Part shown: positions 1 to 10,451 of the stretch, one piece after another
Numbering within the stretch: position 1 is the first letter of the stretch
Layout of the letters: each line of letters opens with the position of its first letter
Virus record (IMG/VR): IMGVR_UViG_2562617113_000011
Location: 1 to 10,451 of that record
DNA length: 10,451 bases
Reading direction: 5' to 3' (one strand)
Source of the DNA: a virus
Lineage: Duplodnaviria > Heunggongvirae > Uroviricota > Caudoviricetes
Program-made: the position numbers and the translations under genes
Notes under the pieces: generated by a model
The model's input: the letters and a program-made list of their open reading frames with translations, nothing else
Databases searched by the model: none
What the model was told of the DNA's origin: nothing

Positions 1-372
1 TTATCGCCGTAACCGCTCCGGCTTCTTCCACTGGTACGTAATTTTTTCTTTCTCCTGGTACATCTGCACGCGGCGACGGTACGACAACATCTCCAGAACT
101 CTGGTGCGTATGTTGCGTATATCCACGCCATTAAGCTCGATACCGTCACGGCGCATCACCTCAGCCATCACACGCGCGTAATTTTCAGCGGTGACTGTAT
201 CCGGCTGCGTGGCCTGTTCGTCAGCCTGCTGGCTGATTCCGGTAATACTGCGGATTATCCCGAGCGCTTCGGTCTCGGTCATGGTCATGGCCTCCATAGT
301 GATGGCGGGTCCTCCTGGTGGGGTGCCCTGCCACGGGGCGGGAGCATCGCGGAAAAAGGCTAGTTTTTGCAT
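1..372 (-). CDS. Hypothetical protein downstream of the small terminase gene (123 aa as drawn; more likely about 93 aa from an internal start at 282)
   Basis: Complete ORF whose stop codon is the first 3 nt of the window. The ATG at 372 has no convincing SD; the in-frame ATG at 282 is preceded by GGAGG with 8-nt spacing. No family recognised; a short QPDTV motif weakly recalls lambda gpFI but is insufficient to call. Confidence 0.45.
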   Translation of the reverse strand: MQKLAFFRDAPAPWQGTPPGGPAITMEAMTMTETEALGIIRSITGISQQADEQATQPDTVTAENYARVMAEVMRRDGIELNGVDIRNIRTRVLEMLSYRRRVQMYQEKEKITYQWKKPERLRR

Positions 373-491
373 TTTTATTCGTCATCACCACCAATGCAAT
401 ATATTGATATGACTTGATGTTTTATTTTTCGGTGTCGATTTCGATTGTTTTTTGTTCATCACTGACGCATAACTCCCACCAGCGCAACGCT

Positions 492-515
492 GAAAGCCAG
501 TCAGTAAACTGGCTT
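492..515 (-). other. Stem-loop (8-bp stem AAGCCAGT/ACTGGCTT, 6-nt loop) just 3' of the small terminase gene; weak U-tract
   Basis: Perfect inverted repeat seen directly in the 162-nt gap between the TerS stop (534) and the next gene. On the minus strand it is followed only by UUUCAG, so it is an attenuator or stabilising hairpin rather than a strong terminator. Confidence 0.3.
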
Positions 516-533
516 CGGTCATTGTGCACTACG

Positions 534-1076
534 TTACTTGTCTTTATCCGGCTGAAACTTATCAGGCACATTTCCGGTAGTTTCCATCAGATAATCGGAC
601 AGCATTCGCGGGATGTTTTCATCAAGTTTTGTGCATGCGTTACAGGCTCTGACAACTTCTTTTTTCAGGCCATCCAGCATGGCGGGGGTCATCTGTGGGA
701 AGCGCCTTTGCATGGTAAGCGGCAGGCTGTCCATGATAGATGAAATCTGACTCGCCAGTTTTGAAAGCGCATATATACAAAATTCCGTACTAATCACGTC
801 GCCGCGTTCGCGCTCGTTTTTAAGCTCCTGCGCCTCCGCCTGCGCTGTCAACAATCTGATCCTGACTCGCAAAAGCTCATCATTATCAATCTCGCCTTTG
901 TCGTCTGTAATCTGGTTAATTGCATTGCTAACCCGATTGTCTATTACGCTGGCAACATCATAAAACGCCTCGCGGCCTTTACGTTCAACGGGAGTCACTC
1001 CCCACTTGTCGAACGCTGTCGCACTTACACGGCAGCTTTGCGCCATGTTTTTTTTGTTCATCAGGTGCGATTTCAT
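534..1076 (-). CDS. Terminase small subunit, lambda Nu1-like (180 aa)
   Basis: The C-terminal two-thirds aligns closely to my recollection of lambda gpNu1 (e.g. AQAEAQELKN, LPLTMQRRFP, LDENIPRMLSDY); the N-terminal DNA-binding region is divergent. Start chosen at the ATG at 1076 (GGGGA SD, 5-nt spacing); alternatives are GTG 1088 and ATG 1061. Confidence 0.8.
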   Translation of the reverse strand: MKSHLMNKKNMAQSCRVSATAFDKWGVTPVERKGREAFYDVASVIDNRVSNAINQITDDKGEIDNDELLRVRIRLLTAQAEAQELKNERERGDVISTEFCIYALSKLASQISSIMDSLPLTMQRRFPQMTPAMLDGLKKEVVRACNACTKLDENIPRMLSDYLMETTGNVPDKFQPDKDK

Positions 1077-1181
1077 CAATATCCCCACTTAAGTAATGTT
1101 TCAGGTTGGTGTATTTGTTTTATCTTTCCCTTTTTATTCATAGAGATAGAGCGAACAACAAAACCACCACCAGCACCCGAA

Positions 1182-1228
1182 AAAGGCTCATAAATAGCGA
1201 AAACCCGCGCGTCTGCCGCCCCGTAACG
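1182..1228 (-). other. Lambda-like cos site (cosN-like 12-mer GGGCGGCAGACG at 1210-1221 on the minus strand, flanked by lambda-identical sequence)
   Basis: The minus strand reads CCGTTACG-GGGCGGCAGACG-CGCGGGTTTTCGCTATTTATGA. As I recall it, lambda reads GTTACG-GGGCGGCGACCT-CGCGGGTTTTCGCTATTTATGA, so the 22 nt after the 12-mer are identical and 5 of 12 overhang positions differ. It lies directly upstream of the Nu1-like gene, as in lambda. Confidence 0.6.
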
Positions 1229-1277
1229 GGTCCATATGCCGGAAAGGACCCGCCAGCCAGAGCGGGCCCTAATTTCA

Positions 1278-1622
1278 TCAACCAATCAACTTATTGCGCC
1301 CTTTCAGGGCATTACGCCTGGCGCGTTCAATCTTGAGGCATAACGCCGCATCAGGTTTTTCGGGGGTGGGAACAAGGCAATAATTTGATGCGCGCGGAAT
1401 GTTGTTAATCCACGCAACAACTTCGCTTAAATACCATGCCTTGCGGCCTTTCGTAACCTGTACGCGTTCGGGGAACTCTCCGCGAGCCTCAAGGTTTAGC
1501 AATGTGCGACGGCTAAGGGTTGTAAGCTCCACTACCTGATCCATATCGACAAGACGCTCGCTTAAGCGCATTTTATCATCGATATCTAATAGCTCTCGTA
1601 GCTGACTATCTCTTTCAATCAT
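1278..1622 (-). CDS. AlpA/excisionase-family HTH DNA-binding protein embedded in the head/packaging operon (114 aa)
   Basis: The central segment LVDMDQVVELTTLSRRTLLNLEARGEFPERVQVTKGRKAWYLSEVVAWI fits the AlpA/Vis pattern (hydrophobic-T-x-LSRsT-x(6)-G-FP ... W ... EV-x-W). ATG at 1622 lies 9 nt after the D-like stop, with GAGG overlapping that stop. Confidence 0.55.
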   Translation of the reverse strand: MIERDSQLRELLDIDDKMRLSERLVDMDQVVELTTLSRRTLLNLEARGEFPERVQVTKGRKAWYLSEVVAWINNIPRASNYCLVPTPEKPDAALCLKIERARRNALKGRNKLIG

Positions 1623-1631
1623 TCTCGTACC

Positions 1632-1973
1632 TCACACACGTGCCAGCGGCTGAACAGAAATACCTGAGCCAACAAACGCAGCAACTTTTGCTGATAGTTG
1701 TGTTACAGACTCAGGCCAGTTCAGAGCATCAACATTTAAGACGCCGGTTTTATAAACCTGAGCCTGCGTTTTTGTCGCTGTATCGATTTGTACAGCGGAA
1801 ACATAAACAGCTTTGCCTGCGCTCGTTCCATCCCATACCACCAGTGCACCAGTTACATCTTCTTGCATCAGTGGCGTAAACGCAGGGATTACCCCTTTAT
1901 TGGCTGAAAATATCCCCAGCGTAGTAACCAGTGCTTCAGTGCCAGCCATGAGTTCAGTGTAATGAGTAGCCAT
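1632..1973 (-). CDS. Head decoration protein, lambda gpD-like (113 aa)
   Basis: Size and motifs match remembered lambda gpD (PAFTPLM, VVWDGT, LNWPE, AFVGSGISV). Sits immediately downstream of the E-like gene (9-nt gap) with an AAGGGGGAG SD. Confidence 0.75.
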   Translation of the reverse strand: MATHYTELMAGTEALVTTLGIFSANKGVIPAFTPLMQEDVTGALVVWDGTSAGKAVYVSAVQIDTATKTQAQVYKTGVLNVDALNWPESVTQLSAKVAAFVGSGISVQPLARV

Positions 1974-1982
1974 TGCTCCCCC

Positions 1983-3023
1983 TTAACCAATGCGAACGGT
2001 AACAAAACGATTGATGCGGGCCGGTATTGGCTGTGGTGCAGAGTGCGTTTGTACGTACTCAATAGCCGGATCACCTGGTACGATGTAATTTTTCGGCGCA
2101 AGTTCGGCTTTAGTAAGCCCCATTCTGATTAACTCAGGATCCTGAATGCCACCGTAGGCAACGATGCCCTGTAATGATGTGTTGCCAAGCACCATCAAAT
2201 CAGGATCAAGGAAATATCTTTCAGTTCCGTCCTCGTCGGTATAACGTCCGCTATATACCACAATAGCAACATCGCCAACGTAACCCTTGAAGCTTACAGA
2301 ATCCCCAAGATTTTTCAGGGCCGTTTCAAGAACGGAATTAGATCCCCGTCGAGTATCAAGGCAATCTTTTACTGCTTTAAAGGCGCGGTATTTTTTCCAT
2401 ACGTTGCGGCCCATTACGATGATATTTGTAGTACCTTCGCTGATTTCTGCGTACTCTTCGATGTCATCGTTTGGATCAAATGTTGATAAATCTCTACCGC
2501 CCCACTCCGTACCGCCGAACTGCGTGATAATATTTTGTGGTTTTATATTCCAGTCCAGTTCATAACGTTCAATTCCATCGCCTTCAATGATATTTTTCCC
2601 CGTTGTAACCGCCTGAACAGCAAGCCACTCAATACGCGCACGAATTGCCTGCGCTTGTCTTACTAACGCTCGCTTTATTTTGAAACTGCGTGATGAATAT
2701 GCATTGAATTGTTCCGGTGATACGCCTGGTTGACGAACGGCTATTTTATTTGGGTCGATACTACTTTTTGGCTTCATATAGCCAGGACGAATTACTTTTG
2801 ATTCGTAGCCTTCATCGCGTGAGACTTTGCTACCAACCATAGGGGAACAAAATGCAGCCATCGGGATGTCTGGATCGTCAATAATATCAAGCGCAATATC
2901 CCGCGTCTCAAATGTAACGACTCGCTTAAAAAACAGGTTTATAAATAAAGAATTAATCTGCCATTGAATATCTTCGGCATTAACAACCTGTATTAACATA
3001 GCTGGTGAATATAAATCACTCAT
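1983..3023 (-). CDS. Major capsid protein, lambda gpE-like (346 aa)
   Basis: Long collinear similarity to remembered lambda gpE (NIITQFGGTEWGGRDLSTFDPNDDIEEYA, FKAVKDCLDTRRGSNSVLETA, GDVAIVVYSGRY, MVLGNT, VPGDPA); 346 aa against 341 aa for gpE; AAGAGG SD 4 nt before the ATG. Confidence 0.85.
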   Translation of the reverse strand: MSDLYSPAMLIQVVNAEDIQWQINSLFINLFFKRVVTFETRDIALDIIDDPDIPMAAFCSPMVGSKVSRDEGYESKVIRPGYMKPKSSIDPNKIAVRQPGVSPEQFNAYSSRSFKIKRALVRQAQAIRARIEWLAVQAVTTGKNIIEGDGIERYELDWNIKPQNIITQFGGTEWGGRDLSTFDPNDDIEEYAEISEGTTNIIVMGRNVWKKYRAFKAVKDCLDTRRGSNSVLETALKNLGDSVSFKGYVGDVAIVVYSGRYTDEDGTERYFLDPDLMVLGNTSLQGIVAYGGIQDPELIRMGLTKAELAPKNYIVPGDPAIEYVQTHSAPQPIPARINRFVTVRIG

Positions 3024-3207
3024 ATAACCTCTTAATACTTAGTAAAAGTGTCGCGTTAATTTTATCATCTGCCTTGTTCGGCATCTTTATGCATTGCTAT
3101 GCAATAGTGTGCAAAGTTTCAATCTTCGTTTATTTATCCGGCGTTACGTGTCATTCTGTACAGCGTTACAAGTTCAAAGACATAAATTATTCTCTTTGGT
3201 GATGAAA

Positions 3208-3234
3208 GGGTCGGAATATTCCGGCCTTTTTTTT
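3208..3234 (+). terminator. Intrinsic terminator on the plus strand (hairpin GGUCGGAAUAUUCCGGCC followed by T8)
   Basis: Palindrome CGGAATATTCCG extended by G-C and G-U pairs, then TTTTTTTT at 3227-3234. No convincing plus-strand CDS lies upstream. Confidence 0.55.
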
Positions 3235-3256
3235 GCGTGGTGTGACGGACTAAACT

Positions 3257-3281
3257 GATAAAAGCCGGATTGCTCCGGCTT
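3257..3281 (-). terminator. Intrinsic terminator ending the SSB operon (stem AAGCCGGA/TCCGGCTT, loop TTGC, then UUUUAU on the minus strand)
   Basis: Perfect 8-bp GC-rich stem located 15 nt after the SSB stop; the minus-strand read is followed by a T-run. Confidence 0.6.
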
Positions 3282-3295
3282 CTGTCACTCGTTGC

Positions 3296-3718
3296 TTAAA
3301 ACGGTATGTTATCCCCGTACGGATCATCGTTACCCGCCTGTTGTTTTGCCCTGTTCAGTGCGTCAGTAGCCTGCCCCTGCTGGCCTTTTTTGCCGCCCGG
3401 TCGCACCGTTCTCGCACTGATTACGCTGTCTGCGATAACCTGCCAGCCCTGCCGCGTTTCGCCGTTCTGGCCTGTCCACTGGCTTACCTGCATGTTACCC
3501 GCCACGCTCACCAGTTCGCCTTTGTGGTGTTTTGCCAGTGCGTCGGCCTGTCTGCCAAACGCCAGGACAGATAACCACATCGTCGCCGTTCCGTCATTTG
3601 CCTGGCTGCATGGCAGGGGAACCGCCATACTCGCCATCGCCATTTGTGTCCCTTTGCTGGTGGTCTTTAACTGCGGGTCAGCCACCAGCCGCCCGTAAGC
3701 CGCTATCTGTGCTGTCAT
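3296..3718 (-). CDS. ssb: Single-stranded DNA-binding protein (140 aa)
   Basis: OB-fold SSB pattern (GRLVADPQLK ... WLSVLAFGRQAD ... GELVSVAGNMQVSQWTGQNGETRQ), a Gly/Gln-rich linker and a C-terminal DDPYGDNIPF resembling the canonical SSB acidic tip DDDIPF. ATGA start/stop overlap with the upstream gene. Confidence 0.75.
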   Translation of the reverse strand: MTAQIAAYGRLVADPQLKTTSKGTQMAMASMAVPLPCSQANDGTATMWLSVLAFGRQADALAKHHKGELVSVAGNMQVSQWTGQNGETRQGWQVIADSVISARTVRPGGKKGQQGQATDALNRAKQQAGNDDPYGDNIPF

Positions 3719-3993
3719 GCTGTCTGCTCTCCGGTTTTAACATTGATGGTTGTCACCTGTTCCGCTTCGGCAATCTCCCGTTCTGTCAGCGTGGCAAAGT
3801 TTGCTGCCGCCGTTGTCATGAATGCGCTTATCAGGTCGGGATGTTCCTTCGCGTATCCTTCCCCCGCGTGGCGGTCTATCGTTCTGATTGCCACCTTTAA
3901 AGCGTGCTCTGTCATGTCTAACGCGCGATATTTCGGCTCTGTTCTGTCTCTGCGTTTTTTGAGTGATTTATTAAATCTCCCTGAAGTGTGCAT
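3715..3993 (-). CDS. Hypothetical protein, basic N-terminus (92 aa), translationally coupled to ssb
   Basis: ORF with a GAGGGGG SD upstream of the ATG at 3993; its stop overlaps the ssb start (ATGA). No family recognised. Confidence 0.5.
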   Translation of the reverse strand: MHTSGRFNKSLKKRRDRTEPKYRALDMTEHALKVAIRTIDRHAGEGYAKEHPDLISAFMTTAAANFATLTEREIAEAEQVTTINVKTGEQTA

Positions 3994-4040
3994 ATTTATT
4001 TTTACCCCCTCGTTTAAAAAGTTTTGAGTTGTGCCTCCCC

Positions 4041-4268
4041 TTGTCTACCTTATCTACCTTAGTGGCCCCTATGCCAGTAATGGCGCGGCTTTCAGCGGGG
4101 TAGAGTGCTTTTATCCACTATCTACTCCGTATCTACCTCCCTGTCTGATTCAGGTAAAATCAGGTAGAGAGGGTAGACAGTGGGTAGACTGTAAAAAAAG
4201 GCTGTCTACCTAACTTAATATACTGAATTAAATGTATTTTCCTTTACTCAGGTAGACAGGGTAGACAG
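4041..4268. repeat. Iteron cluster, putative origin of replication: about 9-bp GGTAGACAG/CTGTCTACC repeats in both orientations flanking an AT-rich spacer
   Basis: Direct copies at 4163-4171 (GGTAGAGAG), 4172-4180, 4183-4191 (GGTAGACTG), 4251-4259 and 4260-4268. Inverted copies at 4041-4049 and 4202-4210, with degenerate TCTACC units at 4051-4058, 4119-4127 and 4131-4137. AT-rich stretch at 4211-4250. Lies immediately 3' of the primase gene. Confidence 0.65.
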
Positions 4269-4281
4269 CAATTACAAAAAA

Positions 4282-6036
4282 TTATAAAAACGCGTCGCAC
4301 TCGTCTGTTGTTATTGCGTTAGTCTGCGTTACCCCCTTAACTTTCCGCGTAATATATTCATGTCCATAAACTTTTGCGGCAGGCTTCATAGCCTTGCCAA
4401 AGTCATTTACGTTTAGCGGTTTGCTCCTGCCTGCGTATGCCATAAACGCCAGATAGACGCGGTAAAGGCTGTTCCTGGTCGTGTACTTCACTGAATCACC
4501 ACCGCCCCCCATCATCAGGCCGCGCGCTTCCTCCAGAAAATTCAGGAACTGGCAAAACTCAATAACCGGATCCGTCTGTTGCTTTATTGCCAGTGCTTCA
4601 TCACCGTCACGCTGTTCCAGTAGTAAAGCCCGTGCCTTCTCAGGGTCGGTAAAGTTCGCCAGCAATCGGCGGATAATAACGGGGATTTCAGCCGCAATCT
4701 TTTCCGGTAGCTCCCTGTCTTTTTCGGCATCACTGACGATATTGTCGAAACGGAAAATCACGCGACGACGTGCCACACCTCCGGCCCGTTCGGTGAATAT
4801 CATCGGGTTGTTGTTGGTCGCCAGCACCACCGCCCTGATTACCGCCGTGAAACGCTTTTCATATTTCGGGTTAATTTCCACGGGGTCGCCGCCTGTGATT
4901 TTCTTGATGCCCGTTCCTTCGCCTGTATATTTCGGCTGGTCAGCCAGGACGATAAGACGACTCCCGACAACCTGCGCACGTCCACCAGCATCATCAAGCG
5001 ATGTCATTTCAGCGCTTACCGTGTTCTGTTTCCCTGCCAGAAGGCTGGCTATGTGTGTGAATGTACTTTTACCGCTCCCGCCGTCTCCGGTGGCCTCAAT
5101 AAACATCTGCCAGTCGTACCGGTTCGCCATAATCATGTACAGCGCGGCACATATACGCATCATCTTGCGCGGGTCTTTTCCGGCTGCGTGCTCAAGCCAT
5201 TTATGAAAGTTTGGCGCGTTATCGCGGATGTTTTCCCCTGGTGCTGGTAGCGTGTACTCAATGCCGTTGTGCGTGGTGATCCAGTTCTCCGGCGTGTGCG
5301 GGGAAAATTCCCCCGTTTTCAGGTCAAGCGCACCATTGGCGAACGGCAGCAAATCGCCGGACGGCTCGCCCATTGGTTCGGCAATAACTTTTAACGCTTC
5401 CACGGCGTTATTGATTACGCGCTTGCTGAAAGTGGCCCTGTGCTCTGAATAGATCGCCACCATTTCGCGGCTAAGTTCCATTGTGCTGACCGGACACCAT
5501 ACCCCGCCGCGCCATACGTGAACGATTTCACTTTCAGGATGTACGCAAACGCCATCAAAGCGATCGGCAAGCAGCTGCGCGCGCTCACTGTCCGCCATCT
5601 GCGAAAGTTGCGCCTTTTGCTTTACCGGAAGCTCAATGACCAGACCATCAGAAAGATTCTGGCGCTCACGGGCCAGATATTCGCGCCAGTTCTCCACCTT
5701 CTGACCGTGCATACCGTCAGGGTAAAAATTTGCATCCTGTACGCCTGCCGCCGCCAGCTTCTGACCAATTGCCTTTATCATTACAGGCGCAAGATATCCG
5801 GCCCTGTATATGCGTGCTGATTTTCGGCCTTCCGGCACAATTTGCAGCTTATCCAGTTCGGATAACTGCTGCTCCCCAAGCCACACAGGAGGCTCATTAT
5901 CTCCGGCCATACGCGCATCATGTTCCTGCCATTGTTTCGCGTGTGCCCAGGCATCACTACCCGCAAAAATAATGACTTCTGTTCCTTTGTGTTTTATGCC
6001 GCGTGACTGCTGTTTTACGTTCGGTGCCAGTTTCAT
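4282..6036 (-). CDS. P4-family primase/helicase replication initiator (584 aa; Walker A GDGGSGKST, SF3-type NTPase)
   Basis: P-loop GDGGSGKST and a following hydrophobic Walker-B-like stretch RLIVLADQ; overall resemblance to the helicase/C-terminal part of P4 alpha and PICI pri-rep proteins; N-terminal region possibly toprim-like. ATGA overlap with the upstream gene. Confidence 0.85.
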   Translation of the reverse strand: MKLAPNVKQQSRGIKHKGTEVIIFAGSDAWAHAKQWQEHDARMAGDNEPPVWLGEQQLSELDKLQIVPEGRKSARIYRAGYLAPVMIKAIGQKLAAAGVQDANFYPDGMHGQKVENWREYLARERQNLSDGLVIELPVKQKAQLSQMADSERAQLLADRFDGVCVHPESEIVHVWRGGVWCPVSTMELSREMVAIYSEHRATFSKRVINNAVEALKVIAEPMGEPSGDLLPFANGALDLKTGEFSPHTPENWITTHNGIEYTLPAPGENIRDNAPNFHKWLEHAAGKDPRKMMRICAALYMIMANRYDWQMFIEATGDGGSGKSTFTHIASLLAGKQNTVSAEMTSLDDAGGRAQVVGSRLIVLADQPKYTGEGTGIKKITGGDPVEINPKYEKRFTAVIRAVVLATNNNPMIFTERAGGVARRRVIFRFDNIVSDAEKDRELPEKIAAEIPVIIRRLLANFTDPEKARALLLEQRDGDEALAIKQQTDPVIEFCQFLNFLEEARGLMMGGGGDSVKYTTRNSLYRVYLAFMAYAGRSKPLNVNDFGKAMKPAAKVYGHEYITRKVKGVTQTNAITTDECDAFL

Positions 6037-6332
6037 TTTTTACCCCTGAATCCGTTAATCATGGTTTTCAGCTTCTGGATGTTTGCCCGTGCCCTGGCGT
6101 TGCTGGTGGGCACGTTATGCGGCGCGGTCTGTACCAGAGAAAAATCACGGGCAAACTGATAAACAGGCATCACGCAATCATATTCGTAACCTTCACGGCG
6201 GTAAGTTACGCGCCGTTCCTCCACGCCCTTAATCATTACCGTGCCGCCGTACTGGTCGCGGTAAATATCACCGCGCATGAATTTAGTGCGAGTTTTGCCG
6301 CTGGCAGTTAAGCCAGGATATTTAAGTTTCAT
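6033..6332 (-). CDS. Hypothetical protein immediately upstream of and coupled to the primase (99 aa)
   Basis: GGAGA SD 9 nt before the ATG at 6332; stop overlaps the primase ATG. Its position matches that of P4 Cnr-type replication modulators, but this is positional inference only. Confidence 0.5.
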   Translation of the reverse strand: MKLKYPGLTASGKTRTKFMRGDIYRDQYGGTVMIKGVEERRVTYRREGYEYDCVMPVYQFARDFSLVQTAPHNVPTSNARARANIQKLKTMINGFRGKK

Positions 6333-6337
6333 TATTT

Positions 6338-6571
6338 TTATTCTCCGGTGTGCTGTTCTTTATATCTGTCGTGCAATAGGTCTATTTCTTGTAGTTCCAT
6401 TATTACAGGCTCAAGAAGCGTTATTAATGCCGTGACAATTCGGGATTTTTGTTTGTCGCGTTCATTATCGCCAAGCGTTTCAAGCCATAAGCGCAATATT
6501 TCCAACATGTTTTCACTGTGAGAAAGTGCAAGAAATGCGCGGTCTATTGTTTCGTGGTAAATATCACGCAT
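6338..6571 (-). CDS. Hypothetical small helical protein (77 aa)
   Basis: GGGGA SD 5 nt before the ATG at 6571; 1-nt gap after the upstream gene's stop. No family recognised. Confidence 0.5.
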   Translation of the reverse strand: MRDIYHETIDRAFLALSHSENMLEILRLWLETLGDNERDKQKSRIVTALITLLEPVIMELQEIDLLHDRYKEQHTGE

Positions 6572-6572
6572 A

Positions 6573-7025
6573 TTAATCCCCGTCCGTCGCTTTTCTTAAA
6601 ATAACCTCTGTCACGAAATCAGCATAATCGGCGGCAATATTCAGTACATCAAGTCCCGTTGATTTATATTCTTTCGTGGAAAGTAAGAAAAAATCCGCTC
6701 TAATAAGTTCTGGCATTGACGAAAGCGCATCAGCCGCATCACCAGGAACGCCGGAAAATTCCTGTTTCAGGGCATTAAAACGATCATCACGCATAACCCC
6801 CCCATTTTCACAATCAGTAATCAGGATGGCTTTAGCCTCATTCAGTGCCATATCAGCACTAAATTGCATAACAGCCAGTGAGTGAGGAACGAAAGCCCCG
6901 GCATATTCTGTTTCGCTGGTGGCGTGCTTATGTGCCCTGTCCGCGATAACAGAAATATCAATCAGCGCGTGCATCAGCGTTTTGATGGCTTCGGCGGCTG
7001 CGTCCTGACGGGTGTTATTGCACAT
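6573..7025 (-). CDS. Hypothetical protein (150 aa)
   Basis: Strong AGGAGG SD 6 nt before the ATG at 7025. The longer 300-aa ORF in the track is an R/P/S-rich upstream extension and was rejected. Start overlaps the stop of the upstream gene by 11 nt. Confidence 0.55.
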   Translation of the reverse strand: MCNNTRQDAAAEAIKTLMHALIDISVIADRAHKHATSETEYAGAFVPHSLAVMQFSADMALNEAKAILITDCENGGVMRDDRFNALKQEFSGVPGDAADALSSMPELIRADFFLLSTKEYKSTGLDVLNIAADYADFVTEVILRKATDGD

Positions 7026-7557
7026 GGCGCACCTCCTGACGAATACGGGCGGCGAATACAGCGACACAACCGGACGGGCAATGGTTACGCGCTTCGCGTT
7101 CCGTCCAGGCGGTGACGTGGATGATTTGGGATTCTGACGCGCCAAAGATGATAAAGCGCCAGATAAAGACAGTGTGAGAATGTATAAGGGTAGGGATAGT
7201 AGCCATGTTGGCAGCCTCCTTTGACAGTGAAGAATTTCCACCGCAGGAAACGCCAATTTCGCTGGCGGTGGACTGAACGGGGTTGGCGTAACCGGCGTCA
7301 AAGGGAACCGGCGCTTCCGAAGAAGCCCCCGCCCAGCCCACCATAACTTTGATGTGAGCGAATGCGGACGATAAAAAAGACGCTGGCGCGTCATATATCG
7401 CCTTTGACATTTCCAAGACGCCAATCCCGGCACCAGATTTTGCTGGTGCGGGTAAATCATAGCCCTGGCTGGCATTGGCGATCAACAGGTTTTTTACATC
7501 GGGTTTATTCAGGTTGTGCGAGTCCCGCCCTTGCGGGTGTGTGGTATGATTTAACAT
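7015..7557 (-). CDS. First gene of the replication operon: Ash-family-like N-terminal region fused in frame to an Icd-like (host cell division inhibitor-like) C-terminal region (180 aa)
   Basis: The N-terminal half carries motifs I associate with P4-like Ash proteins (AKSGAGIGV, MVGWAG, PVPFDAGYANPVQSTASEIGVS). The C-terminal 63 aa (FIWRF ... ESQIIHVTAWTEREARNHC ... AVFAARIRQEV) resembles Icd-like proteins and has its own AAGGAGG SD before an internal ATG at 7206. GAGGT SD before the ATG at 7557. Family assignment is from memory. Confidence 0.5.
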   Translation of the reverse strand: MLNHTTHPQGRDSHNLNKPDVKNLLIANASQGYDLPAPAKSGAGIGVLEMSKAIYDAPASFLSSAFAHIKVMVGWAGASSEAPVPFDAGYANPVQSTASEIGVSCGGNSSLSKEAANMATIPTLIHSHTVFIWRFIIFGASESQIIHVTAWTEREARNHCPSGCVAVFAARIRQEVRHVQ

Positions 7558-7649
7558 AGCTACCTCGATACTTCTGCTATCGTTGGTGGTTAGAAGCCCT
7601 GCGAGTGGTAACGACACTTGCGGGGCTTTGCATTTATGCGCCTTGATAA

Positions 7650-7730
7650 TTTTAAGGTGTGGCCCACTATATGTTTTAGGTGTGGCCCACGTCAAGAGTT
7701 TTATTTGTGCTTTTTCTGTGTATACTGTCC
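7650..7730. promoter_or_regulatory. Divergent promoter/operator region: two 13-bp direct repeats AGGTGTGGCCCAC (7655-7667, 7678-7690) overlapping candidate sigma70 promoters on both strands
   Basis: Minus strand: -35 TTGACG (plus 7690-7695), 18-bp spacer, -10 TATAGT (plus 7666-7671), so both repeats fall in the -35/spacer/-10 region. Plus strand: -10 TATACT (7721-7726) with upstream TGTG, 30 nt before the RHH-like gene. Each repeat contains the dyad GTGG-C-CCAC. Confidence 0.55.
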
Positions 7731-7756
7731 CCCACCAATCCACCAGAGGAATAGAA

Positions 7757-7936
7757 ATGGCAACGGGTACAACAAACGCAAAATCACAAGCTCTAAAGGC
7801 TCGTGTACCACACGAAATAGTAAACGCCATGGAATCAGTGAAAGAATCAGGCGAAAGCACATCACAATTCATCATTACGTCAATGCAAGGCGAGATCAAA
7901 CGCCGCCAGCGGCGCAAGGCCAAAGAGCAGGAGTAA
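7757..7936 (+). CDS. Small DNA-binding-like protein, possibly ribbon-helix-helix (59 aa); candidate repressor acting at the adjacent repeats
   Basis: GAGGAA SD 6 nt before the ATG; the N-terminal segment KSQALKARVPHEIVNAMESV resembles an Arc/CopG-type strand-helix; basic C-terminal tail. Fold is inferred, not computed. Confidence 0.55.
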   Translation: MATGTTNAKSQALKARVPHEIVNAMESVKESGESTSQFIITSMQGEIKRRQRRKAKEQE

Positions 7937-7993
7937 CCATCACCAGCGCTGTGGTGCGGTGAACTGTGGCGCACTGGGTTACAGGTATCTACG

Positions 7994-8191
7994 ATGACTG
8001 ACAAATCATTAAAGAAATTATCCTCATCCAGGAAAAAACAACGCAAAAATGCGGTAAGCGAACAAGAACAGGAGAGATTTGCGCCATGTGCGTTTGCCCT
8101 TGAGAAGTTCTTAAAAGAGTACAGGCGCACAAAAATGGGGTCGCATACCTGGAAAACATCGCGGCATGGCAATGTTAAAGAGCAGGAATAG
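7994..8191 (+). CDS. Hypothetical highly basic small protein (65 aa); coding status uncertain
   Basis: ORF following the RHH-like gene in the same orientation with a weak SD (AGGT, 7-nt spacing); K/R-rich, no motif recognised. A plus-strand terminator follows at 8295-8322. Confidence 0.35.
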   Translation: MTDKSLKKLSSSRKKQRKNAVSEQEQERFAPCAFALEKFLKEYRRTKMGSHTWKTSRHGNVKEQE

Positions 8192-8294
8192 CCCACCAGC
8201 AAGCCAGCACACTGATCACATTGCCCACCAGCCGCAAATGTGGCATTGTTGGCAATGCTCATGCGTTGGGGATAACGTGTAGCTTGTGTCGAAG

Positions 8295-8322
8295 GGCCAC
8301 CGTAGCGGGTGGCCTTTGTTTT
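8295..8322 (+). terminator. Intrinsic terminator for the small plus-strand operon (stem GGCCACC/GGTGGCC, then TTTGTTTT)
   Basis: 7-bp GC stem with a 6-nt loop followed by a T-rich tract on the plus strand only. Confidence 0.55.
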
Positions 8323-8360
8323 GCCTGTTATCCGGCAATTGTGGCGCTTCGCTACACGGT

Positions 8361-8446
8361 TGATATAATCCCACTGCACTGATTCATTTTTTGCGCAGTA
8401 GGTTAATTGTTCGCAAGGGCGCTCCGGCAACGGGGCGCTTTTTGTT
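8361..8446 (+). ncRNA. Candidate small RNA unit: extended -10 promoter (TGaTATAAT, 8361-8369) followed about 50 nt later by a strong intrinsic terminator (8419-8446)
   Basis: Perfect TATAAT preceded by TGn; hairpin GCGCUCCG-GCAA-CGGGGCGC (GNRA-type loop) followed by TTTTTGTT; no ATG-initiated ORF between them. Lies on the opposite strand just past the 3' end of alpA. Confidence 0.3.
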
Positions 8447-8473
8447 ATGTTCATCGCGTTACGCCTCACACCA

Positions 8474-8680
8474 TTACGCAGCCGTTCCGCGCGCTTCTTC
8501 CTCGCGCTCTTTCAGCCAGGCCAGCACTTCATCTTCATACCAGCCAACACGACGCAGACCGATTTTGAAGCCTTTCGGGAATTTTCCTGCGTTGATCATG
8601 TCCTGTAGCGAACTGTCTGCCTTGATGCGCAGAATATTTTTTACTTCCTGACGGGTAAGTATTTTTCTGATTGTTTCCAC
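8474..8680 (-). CDS. alpA: AlpA/Vis-family phage transcriptional regulator / excisionase-like protein (68 aa)
   Basis: HTH pattern LRIKADSSLQDMINAGKFPKGFKIGLRRVGWYEDEVLAWL typical of AlpA; GTG start at 8680 with GAGGT SD 8 nt upstream; position next to the integrase. Confidence 0.8.
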   Translation of the reverse strand: METIRKILTRQEVKNILRIKADSSLQDMINAGKFPKGFKIGLRRVGWYEDEVLAWLKEREEEARGTAA

Positions 8681-8813
8681 TATGTTTTACCTCGTTAATC
8701 CGGCGTATTCCGGTGATAAATACGGTAAAACAGGGCTGGGCGGGAAAAACAGTACCCACCGTTTTAAAACGGTATCCACTGTTTTTTATCTCATTGATTA
8801 CGCTTTTCTTTCT

Positions 8814-8846
8814 GCAAAAAAATAGCGACCGCAAAGGGCCGCTATT
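8814..8846 (-). terminator. Intrinsic terminator after the integrase-proximal small gene (10-bp stem with one mismatch, then a U6-8 tract on the minus strand)
   Basis: Inverted repeat AATAGCGACC/GGCCGCTATT (8821-8846) followed on the minus strand by an A-run on the plus strand (8815-8820), i.e. U-tract. Confidence 0.55.
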
Positions 8847-8850
8847 GTGA

Positions 8851-9093
8851 TTACCGTTTCCACTTCTTAGGTCGCCCACCGCATTTAAGGCTGGTGGGCC
8901 TCAGCACCTTGTCGATGCTTTCAGCCAGATTTTTCGATGCACCACGCGAGCGCAAAAAACTGACTACCTCGTGTTTTGTGGGGGCTGTTGATTTGTCTTC
9001 CGGATCGTATGTTGACCAGAATTCACGATTTGCCATTAACGCCAGTTGCAGCCCTTCGCCGCAAGCAGGGGATACCTTTTCATTGAAAAACAC
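8851..9093 (-). CDS. Hypothetical protein downstream of the integrase (80 aa), basic C-terminus GGRPKKWKR
   Basis: GTG start at 9093 with AAGGAG SD 8 nt upstream; followed by an intrinsic terminator. No family recognised. Confidence 0.45.
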   Translation of the reverse strand: MFFNEKVSPACGEGLQLALMANREFWSTYDPEDKSTAPTKHEVVSFLRSRGASKNLAESIDKVLRPTSLKCGGRPKKWKR

Positions 9094-9209
9094 CTGGATA
9101 GCTCCTTGAATTTCATGATTTGGGTGACTCCTCTCTGTATTGGGTGGGTTGTGGCGATTATACGATGGTTTAGCATGGTTTGCATCGCTTTTACTGGTTT
9201 TTTGTACAG

Positions 9210-10451
9210 TTACACGGCACGGATACCCCTTTTACCACTGGCTATGGTCACTCCGGTAGCTGCGGCCTCTACAAATTCCCCCCACCAGCGCATAAGCACC
9301 ACGCGCTTTTCCAGGTAGTTACTTCGGTTATATGCTCGCCTTACCTCGTTCGTGTCCACGTGTGCGAGTGCGGCCTCGATTACGTCCGGCTCGAATCCTT
9401 CCTCGTTCGCTGCTGTACTGAATATGGCGCGTAATCCGTGAGACACCAGCACACCAGCGTATCCCATCCGGCGCAATGCAGCGTTAGCGGTCTGGCTGTT
9501 CATTGGCAGCATTGGATTTTTAAGGCTGGGAAAAACATGTTCCCTGTGTGCGCTGATTGGCTTCATTGTTTCCAGTACAGCCATCGCCTGACCGCAAAGA
9601 GGGATCACATGGTCACGGCGCATCTTCATGCGTCCGGCTGGAATCGTCCATGTTTCGGCATCGAGATCTATTTCTTCCCAGCGTGCGGCGGCTGCTTCGG
9701 CTGGGCGTGCTACGGTCAGCAGTTGCCACTCGATTAGCAATCTGGTTTGCCGTTCTATGCTGGCGACCGATAAATCGTGCATTAGCTGCGGTAGCTGTTC
9801 CGGTCGGATGGTTGGCATATGCTTTTTAGTGGGGGAAGGGAATGCCTTGCGGACGTTCGCGGCGGTGTTGATGTCAATCAGCCCACTGTTGGCAGCAAAA
9901 TCCATCACTTCATTGATGCGTTGTAAAACGCGTTTCAGAGTTTCCAGGTTGCCGCGTGCTTTAATGGGTGTGAGTATCTCAACAAAGCGGCGAGCGGTGA
10001 GGGTATCTATTGGCGTGTTTCCGATGTACGGGAATACGTATTTTTCCAGGGATCGCCAGATATCCTTAATCGTGTTGTAAGCCAGATTCTGGCCTTTTTT
10101 CATCTCGTACCAGTCCAAGGCAACTTTTTCGAACGTGTTGCCCTTTTTCCTGCTCTCTGCTTCACGTTTCCGGCGTTCGTAGTCCTGTGGGTCAGTTCCC
10201 TTTGCTATGAGTGACCTGTATTCATTCCGTCGCTCTCTGGCATCAGACAGGGAAACATCATTTAGCGATCCAAGGCTGATAATAGTCCGTTTTTTATCTG
10301 CCGGGCGGTAGTACGTAAAACGCCAGATTTTTGATCCGGAGGGCTTCACCAGAAGAAATAATCCTCCGCCATCCTGCAGGGTATATTCCTTTTCCCCTGG
10401 TCGTGCGTTTTTGATCTCCGTAATAGTTAGTGGGGTGGTTTTTCGTGCCAT
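9210..10451 (-). CDS. int: P4-type tyrosine integrase (site-specific recombinase, 413 aa)
   Basis: N-terminus MARKTTPLTITEIKNARPGEKEYTLQDGGGLFLLVKPSGSKIWRFTYY is typical of P4/CP4-57-type integrases; C-terminal catalytic region with HGLR and the RRAYNRSNY tyrosine motif. The start codon is the last 3 nt of the window. Confidence 0.9.
   Translation of the reverse strand: MARKTTPLTITEIKNARPGEKEYTLQDGGGLFLLVKPSGSKIWRFTYYRPADKKRTIISLGSLNDVSLSDARERRNEYRSLIAKGTDPQDYERRKREAESRKKGNTFEKVALDWYEMKKGQNLAYNTIKDIWRSLEKYVFPYIGNTPIDTLTARRFVEILTPIKARGNLETLKRVLQRINEVMDFAANSGLIDINTAANVRKAFPSPTKKHMPTIRPEQLPQLMHDLSVASIERQTRLLIEWQLLTVARPAEAAAARWEEIDLDAETWTIPAGRMKMRRDHVIPLCGQAMAVLETMKPISAHREHVFPSLKNPMLPMNSQTANAALRRMGYAGVLVSHGLRAIFSTAANEEGFEPDVIEAALAHVDTNEVRRAYNRSNYLEKRVVLMRWWGEFVEAAATGVTIASGKRGIRAV

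Follow-up and report, generated by a model that had tools for sequence, protein, structure and literature searches.

A GGTAGA iteron array 3' of an alpha-like initiator gene: probable replication origin of an EcCICFT073-type phage-inducible chromosomal island

What function is served by the short, repeat-laden stretch of DNA that follows the initiator gene of a chromosomal island carried in the viral record IMGVR_UViG_2562617113_000011? The stretch occupies positions 4041-4268 of a 10,451-bp 'window' (positions 1 to 10,451 of that record, and the whole of the DNA analysed here), in which the island genes all lie on the minus strand and which possibly does not cover the entire island. An earlier reading made from the sequence alone (the 'sequence-only reading') had proposed an iteron-type replication origin, and that proposal has held: the array is homologous to the cloned and experimentally tested origin of EcCICFT073, the prototype Gram-negative phage-inducible chromosomal island (PICI), and we estimate the probability that 4041-4268 serves as the vegetative origin of replication in an island of this type at about 0.9. 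The call is correct yet not new: the cloning and testing of the EcCICFT073 origin, which is ~95% identical, date from 2018, and the feature, besides having been described before, is common among genomes of Escherichia coli.

Eleven nine-base sites in both orientations make up the array, ten of them with an exact GGTAGA core and one degenerate, with the consensus RGGTAGAYAG. Read along the window, they comprise a tandem pair on the minus strand (4041-4049 and 4050-4058), an exact plus-strand copy (4099-4107), two minus-strand copies (the degenerate one at 4118-4126 and an exact one at 4129-4137), three tandem plus-strand copies with exact cores (4163-4171, 4172-4180 and 4183-4191), an inverted, minus-strand copy (4202-4210) and two further plus-strand copies (4251-4259 and 4260-4268). 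The last three bracket an AT-rich segment at 4211-4250 (80% A+T, with the richest 30-mer, at 87%, beginning at 4211), the inverted iteron standing on its left and the two direct iterons on its right. Taken from the end of the minus-strand initiator gene (4282-6036), whose stop codon the array approaches to within 14 bp, and in the direction of that gene, the order is two iterons backward, the AT-rich segment, one forward, three backward, two forward, one backward, a G+C-rich block and two forward. The concentration of sites is far from chance: of the 11 GGTAGA copies in the window, ten lie at 4044-4265 and a single stray one at 2493, whereas shuffled versions of the window contain a mean of 2.4 copies and never (0 of 200 shuffles) reach 11. 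The sequence-only reading had described three tandem repeats with inverted copies, phased at 9-11 bp, around an AT-rich 40 bp; the coordinates of the tandem copies, the inverted copies, the phasing (tandem copies lie 9, 9, 11 and 9 bp apart, start to start) and the AT-rich segment flanked by repeats all stand, and only its count, of roughly five to six repeats, was too low.

The array lies in a non-coding gap of 288 bp (3994-4281) that separates the initiator stop from the start of the following gene. That reading had regarded a position of the repeats inside a conserved coding sequence as fatal to its proposal; no coding sequence is annotated in the array region in nine RefSeq genomes. An open reading frame (ORF) at 4031-4213 was considered as a coding sequence and ruled out, being unannotated in all nine genomes and frameshifted by a 1-nt deletion in the copy of strain Nissle 1917. 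A search of the whole window against Rfam at gathering thresholds gave no match within 3994-4281.

The strongest evidence for origin function comes from close relatives. Among 5,426 complete E. coli genomes, 507 (~9%) have a match to the gap, always in the chromosome, and CFT073 is one of them. Over 4041-4268 the window and the EcCICFT073 origin are identical at 216 of 228 positions (94.7%) with no gaps, and over the whole gap at 272 of 288; the two initiators share 98% identity, and the location directly 3' of pri-rep, the iterons, their order and their spacing are all the same. The window copy differs by 12 substitutions, one of which (at 4126) degrades an iteron core. The gene set of a PICI (int, alpA and pri-rep, transcribed in one direction) is likewise present in the window, laid out as in the CFT073 island.

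In the published test (Fillol-Salom et al. 2018, ISME J; PMC6092414), pri-ori, pri-delta-ori and delta-pri-ori versions of EcCICFT073 were cloned in a temperature-sensitive vector; at the restrictive temperature no colonies were obtained when rep was deleted, and colony numbers were significantly reduced when ori was deleted. The tested fragment was delimited by mapping the primers of the published supplementary table (PMC6092414), one of which, in its stored text, has a one-base mismatch to the genome. A published 60-mer primer aligns to window positions 4234-4293 with four mismatches; the pri-ori insert corresponds to 8198-10307 of locus L009, and the delta-ori insert reaches no further than 10000, four bases beyond the pri stop codon. 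It follows from these ends that the deleted 'ori' is exactly the gap described here, with all 11 GGTAGA copies of CFT073.

The same comparison bears on the idea that the array is a packaging signal (a cos or pac site, or a set of binding sites for the small terminase). The island does encode a Nu1-type small terminase (534-1088, minus strand), and cos sites are known in PICIs; but EcCICFT073 shares the array and yet has no TerS (PMC6092414), a search for a lambda-type cosN placed none in the gap (sequences at 4883 and 8869, with two mismatches each, were the best matches and do not exceed chance), and the type of repeat goes with the initiator rather than with the morphogenesis genes. A packaging function is therefore extremely improbable.

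How the array is related to the replication origin of P4 can be judged from the features annotated in the P4 GenBank record, where the type-1 repeats TGTTCACC are found in both ori and crr and the rep_origin spans 9086-9809. The core of the P4 ori (9310-9413) consists of three GGTGAACAG copies, one inverted copy, ~35 bp of AT-rich sequence and two further GGTGAACAG copies. The corresponding module of the window, at 4163-4268, consists of three GGTAGAnnG copies, one inverted copy, the 40 AT-rich bp and two GGTAGACAG copies; it is oriented as in P4 with respect to the initiator gene, and the AT-rich parts of the two have a TAA..TACTG...TA motif in common. The two can be aligned collinearly (window 4150-4285 with P4 9296-9425), and the core also aligns with that of a sibling island bearing iterons of the TGTTCACC type. 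The window initiator, moreover, possesses the helicase and the origin-binding domain of alpha, and the array directly follows the initiator gene as crr does in P4. The two systems differ in the iteron itself, which is changed at two of nine positions (GGTAGACAG in the window versus GGTGAACAG in P4), in the origin-binding domain (only ~33% identical), in the lack of the Zn-ribbon/Toprim primase of alpha from the window initiator, and in the placement of the ori-like and crr-like sets, which adjoin one another in a single 230-bp gap in the window and lie 4.5 kb apart in P4. The type-1 P4 iteron TGTTCACC is not present in the window array, where all copies have the GGTAGA/TCTACC core. An architecture of the P4 ori/crr or PICI type had been claimed by the sequence-only reading, and is borne out by this collinearity and by the tested PICI homolog; the P4 iteron that it gave as different from that of the window is indeed the one annotated in the P4 record.

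The remaining, distal set of iterons (4041-4137: the tandem pair at 4041-4058, a spacer block, the inverted copy at 4099-4107 and two more at 4118-4137) loosely resembles, by analogy, one unit of the P4 crr, in which a tandem pair, a gap and opposed copies follow one another, and the whole may be read as a compact 'ori-plus-crr' arrangement. A separate crr several kb away was not found; there is a single cluster in the window, which may not span the whole island. It might be asked whether the iterons serve mainly as an element of copy-number control or incompatibility that titrates or 'handcuffs' the initiator, with initiation occurring elsewhere. There are far more sites than the flanks of one AT-rich segment would require, and the exact role of the P4 crr, which the distal set resembles, is likewise something other than initiation itself. 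Set against this, the iteron-flanked AT-rich segment is collinear with the annotated core of the P4 rep_origin, and the window holds no second cluster, only the lone GGTAGA at 2493. The proposal is very unlikely as it stands; copy control would be a role exercised within an origin rather than an alternative to one.

Origins of other types offer further points of comparison. Iteron plasmids of the pSC101, R6K and P1 oriR type carry repeated initiator sites beside an AT-rich region. The window array differs from these in the length and arrangement of its sites (9 bp in both orientations, versus direct repeats of 17-22 bp), in having an initiator that is itself a helicase, and in that a DnaA-box-like sequence, TTATCCACT, is found only in close relatives of the window. 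That sequence (4111-4119) departs from the DnaA-box consensus TTATCCACA by one base; the five closest homologs have it, the divergent copies XJ6.1, Jnd12 and O157 do not, and it is therefore probably non-essential. The origins of Staphylococcus aureus pathogenicity islands (SaPIs) and other Gram-positive PICIs lie 3' of rep, with sets of iterons to either side of an AT-rich region and an initiator of the helicase type (PMC6092414). By that description the window array is similar, being also 3' of its initiator gene with iterons around an AT-rich region.

The protein expected to recognize the array is the 584-amino-acid 'Pri-Rep' encoded at 4282-6036, in which an N-terminal region of ~125 residues is followed by D5_N, an SF3 helicase domain (DUF5906) and a Pox_D5/P4-alpha-type origin-binding domain, all assigned by Pfam. 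Its alignment with P4 alpha, at 40% identity, covers alpha residues 324-762 only (the helicase and origin-binding regions), and residues 488-579 of the initiator match the solved origin-binding domain of alpha (1KA8; E=7e-7). The sole solved primase-helicase of the SaPI type that is matched, 7OLA, aligns with the helicase core alone. Alpha carries both a Zn-ribbon and a Toprim domain within its first 320 residues; neither was detected in the window initiator by Pfam, its first ~125 residues match nothing in Pfam or NCBIfam, and an hhalign comparison of its N-terminal domain with the N-terminal primase region of alpha gave a probability of 0.08, indicating no relation. The same region shares 63% identity with the N-terminal part of RepA-type initiators from sibling islands. 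The segments that are invariant in the alignment of this region, IIFAGSDAW and xYRAG, lack the glutamate and the DxD that characterize an active Toprim domain. With no recognizable primase domain in the protein, 'primase' is an unsupported label: the sequence-only reading, which had placed the array downstream of a P4-family primase/helicase, was right as to position and as to the helicase, and wrong as to the primase.

Conservation within the array points to the iteron core as the element under constraint. Among nine E. coli homologs, whose identity to the window within 4041-4268 falls as low as 59%, 56 of the 66 columns within iteron cores show no variation, versus 49 of the 168 outside them (Fisher p=5e-15, a value that overstates independence because the homologs are related, although the contrast within the alignment is clear). 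The three bases that follow the core vary (CAG, TAG, GGG or TGG) even where the initiators are 98% identical, so that the constant recognition element is reduced to GGTAGA. Outside the iterons, a G+C-rich block, CAGTAATGGCGCGGCTTTCAG at 4075-4095, is identical or altered by one substitution in all nine homologs despite their overall divergence, and related blocks occupy the equivalent position in Symbiopectobacterium, Raoultella and Yersinia. A hairpin test of both strands of 4060-4100 gave no structure signal (z about -0.2); a stem of 10-11 bp that spans the AT-rich segment scored somewhat better (z -2.1 to -2.4), and merely reflects the inverted iterons.

The relationship between initiator and iteron is visible in sibling islands of E. 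coli, in which the initiator gene and its origin are swapped as a single cassette between constant flanks (a gene for a DUF4222 protein upstream, and genes for a 92-amino-acid protein and a single-stranded DNA-binding protein, SSB, downstream). In one variant, a 605-amino-acid alpha-like initiator (48% identical to that of the window) is accompanied by nine copies of CTGTTCAC/GGTGAACA, an iteron of the P4 type, in nearly the same layout; locus L012, which has this initiator, carries the exact P4 iteron TGTTCACC in a window-like arrangement. Siblings with RepA/AAA_25 helicases carry repeats of CTCACTTTT or CCCACTTTT instead, and GGTAGA is found in none of the swapped gaps (L012 3247-3533, L013 3247-3533, L010 3241-3440, L011 3253-3453 and L014 3227-3335).

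A wider scan, of one genome per species (80 loci), examined the 400 bp that follow the initiator stop, and usually found 6-13 copies of one short word. That word is GGTAGA in Shigella, Rosenbergiella, Xenorhabdus, Symbiopectobacterium, Yersinia, Raoultella, Pantoea, Kluyvera and E. ruysiae; GGTGAA(CA) in Klebsiella, Citrobacter, Raoultella, Pluralibacter, Pectobacterium, Rahnella and others; and ATGAACAC, GGTATACA, GGACAGT, AGTGAC or another word at other loci, the types met being GGTAGA, GGTGAA, GGTGTTCAT (also listed as ATGAACAC), GGTATACAC, GGACAGT and AGTGAC. The full layout of the window array recurs in several genera, and the order and orientation of the distal set are kept in Rosenbergiella, Xenorhabdus, Symbiopectobacterium, Yersinia and Raoultella. 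Arrays were clear at 44 loci; when these were compared by the C-terminal domain of the initiator (its last 105 residues), 40 had a nearest neighbour of the same iteron type, mean identity being 0.60 within an iteron type and 0.39 between types. The distinct initiator specificity that the sequence-only reading had deduced from the iteron is supported by this covariation, and is not novel, belonging to the published EcCICFT073 family and being spread over many genera.

These observations also decide against the view that the array is an operator, bound by a transcriptional regulator (for example, an AlpA-like protein) that controls the downstream operon of SSB, capsid, decoration and small terminase genes. 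Such a role would suit the position of the array within the leader of those genes, the lack of a predicted terminator between pri and them, and the presence of two AlpA-like regulators on the island. Yet the iterons change with the type of initiator while the downstream genes stay constant, the iteron type follows the DNA-binding domain of the initiator across genera, and the fragment is required for full replication of a plasmid that carries only pri (PMC6092414). The promoter and terminator scan of 3900-4400, furthermore, returned no sigma-70-like promoter that points toward the downstream genes, and a single weak promoter-like site on the plus strand that did not exceed shuffled sequence. 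As an account of the array an operator is unlikely, at long odds; a secondary regulatory role may exist besides that of an origin.

Several points weigh against the assignment of 4041-4268 as an origin read by its own initiator. Experimental evidence of function belongs to the 95%-identical EcCICFT073 copy, rather than to this exact sequence, and there deletion of ori lowered plasmid maintenance without abolishing it (PMC6092414). Binding of the initiator to GGTAGA was not found demonstrated in the literature. One core of the window copy is degenerate (TCTACT at 4121-4126, where all eight homologs have TCTACC), and the domains of the initiator leave the source of primers unaccounted for. Lastly, four of the 44 loci pair domain and iteron discordantly. 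In L018 (4265-4594, Pseudocitrobacter) and L019 (4265-4594, Escherichia sp. ESNIH1), domains that are 95% identical accompany different iterons (GGTATACAC versus GGTGTTCAT, with mixed copies in L019), and in L032 and L072 (E. ruysiae and Kluyvera georgiana) a domain that lies near the GGTGAA/GGACAGT groups goes with GGTAGAC iterons. The code that relates domain to iteron is, from these exceptions, not a simple one; the loci concerned may represent recent or convergent switches of specificity.

If 4041-4268 is taken as the origin, its use might proceed as follows. The C-terminal winged-helix origin-binding domain of the initiator would bind the nine-base GGTAGAYAG iterons, a step suggested by its homology to a DNA-binding domain and by the covariation of domain and iteron. 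If P4 alpha is a guide, several protomers would then occupy helically phased sites at both sides of 4211-4250 and would distort and open that AT-rich segment, the presumed site of initial opening, after which the same protein would assemble as the replicative helicase, in effect loading itself. The distal set at 4041-4137 probably acts as an enhancing element required in cis, as crr is in P4. Primers would be supplied in trans, with host DnaG favoured as the simplest guess; priming by something other than a P4-type primase domain is called for because the initiator has none.

A broader proposal can be put forward tentatively, with the odds somewhat against it as a whole: that the array joins a compact P4-type ori core to a crr-like unit; that alpha-like domains and their nine-base iterons constitute natural orthogonal replicons, in which a two-nucleotide change of the iteron switches specificity; and that 'Pri-Rep' is no primase, but possesses a degenerate N-terminal module (possibly Toprim-like) in common with unrelated RepA-type initiators, such that priming relies on the host or follows a mechanism not yet described. 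The origin call itself adds nothing new, other than to indicate that a reader with no tools can recognize an origin of the PICI/P4 type. The added value is modest, and lies in the explicit collinearity with the P4 ori, in the covariation of iteron and domain across genera, and in the missing primase domain of a protein that is routinely annotated as a 'DNA primase'. For those who study satellites, it may be useful that in architecture the origin is directly homologous to the P4 ori, the iteron being changed by two nucleotides, and the covariation, which extends over Enterobacterales and Aeromonas, provides a panel for the study of winged-helix specificity and of replicon incompatibility between co-resident satellites.

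The surrounding genes are those of a phage-satellite island. A P4-type integrase (9210-10451), an AlpA-like regulator (8474-8680) and the DUF4222 protein (6033-6332) are encoded upstream of the initiator. Downstream of the array come the conserved leader and ribosome-binding region (GAGGGGG; 3994-4040, outside the iterons) of the gene for the 92-amino-acid protein (3715-3993; phrog_1231, to which no function is assigned), followed by the SSB (3296-3718; Pfam SSB, E=2.6e-16), a major capsid protein of the Lambda-E type (1983-3023) and a head-decoration protein (1632-1973). A second AlpA-like gene (1278-1622) and the Nu1-type terminase gene sit after the capsid and decoration genes, as they do in L011-L013; at the corresponding place EcCICFT073 has hypothetical genes. 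The terminase-bearing layout of the window island may reflect a different packaging strategy.

When the whole window was searched against a collection of phage genomes, the sole match was at 7193-7440, the origin being absent from deposited phage genomes at megablast sensitivity. The matching segment is 88% identical to the immunity region of SfV. Rfam identifies a C4 antisense RNA (82 bits) and an isrK RNA (70.5 bits) here, at 7261-7348 and 7373-7449 on the minus strand, both directly upstream of a short Icd-like ORF (MATIPTLIHSHTVFIWRF..., 7015-7205, minus strand); the long ORFs at 6573-7475 and 7015-8469 look spurious. The order of C4 RNA and Icd is that of the c4-icd arrangement in the immI immunity operon of phage P1, which suggests that the C4/isrK/Icd module is an RNA-based immunity or regulatory module of the island.
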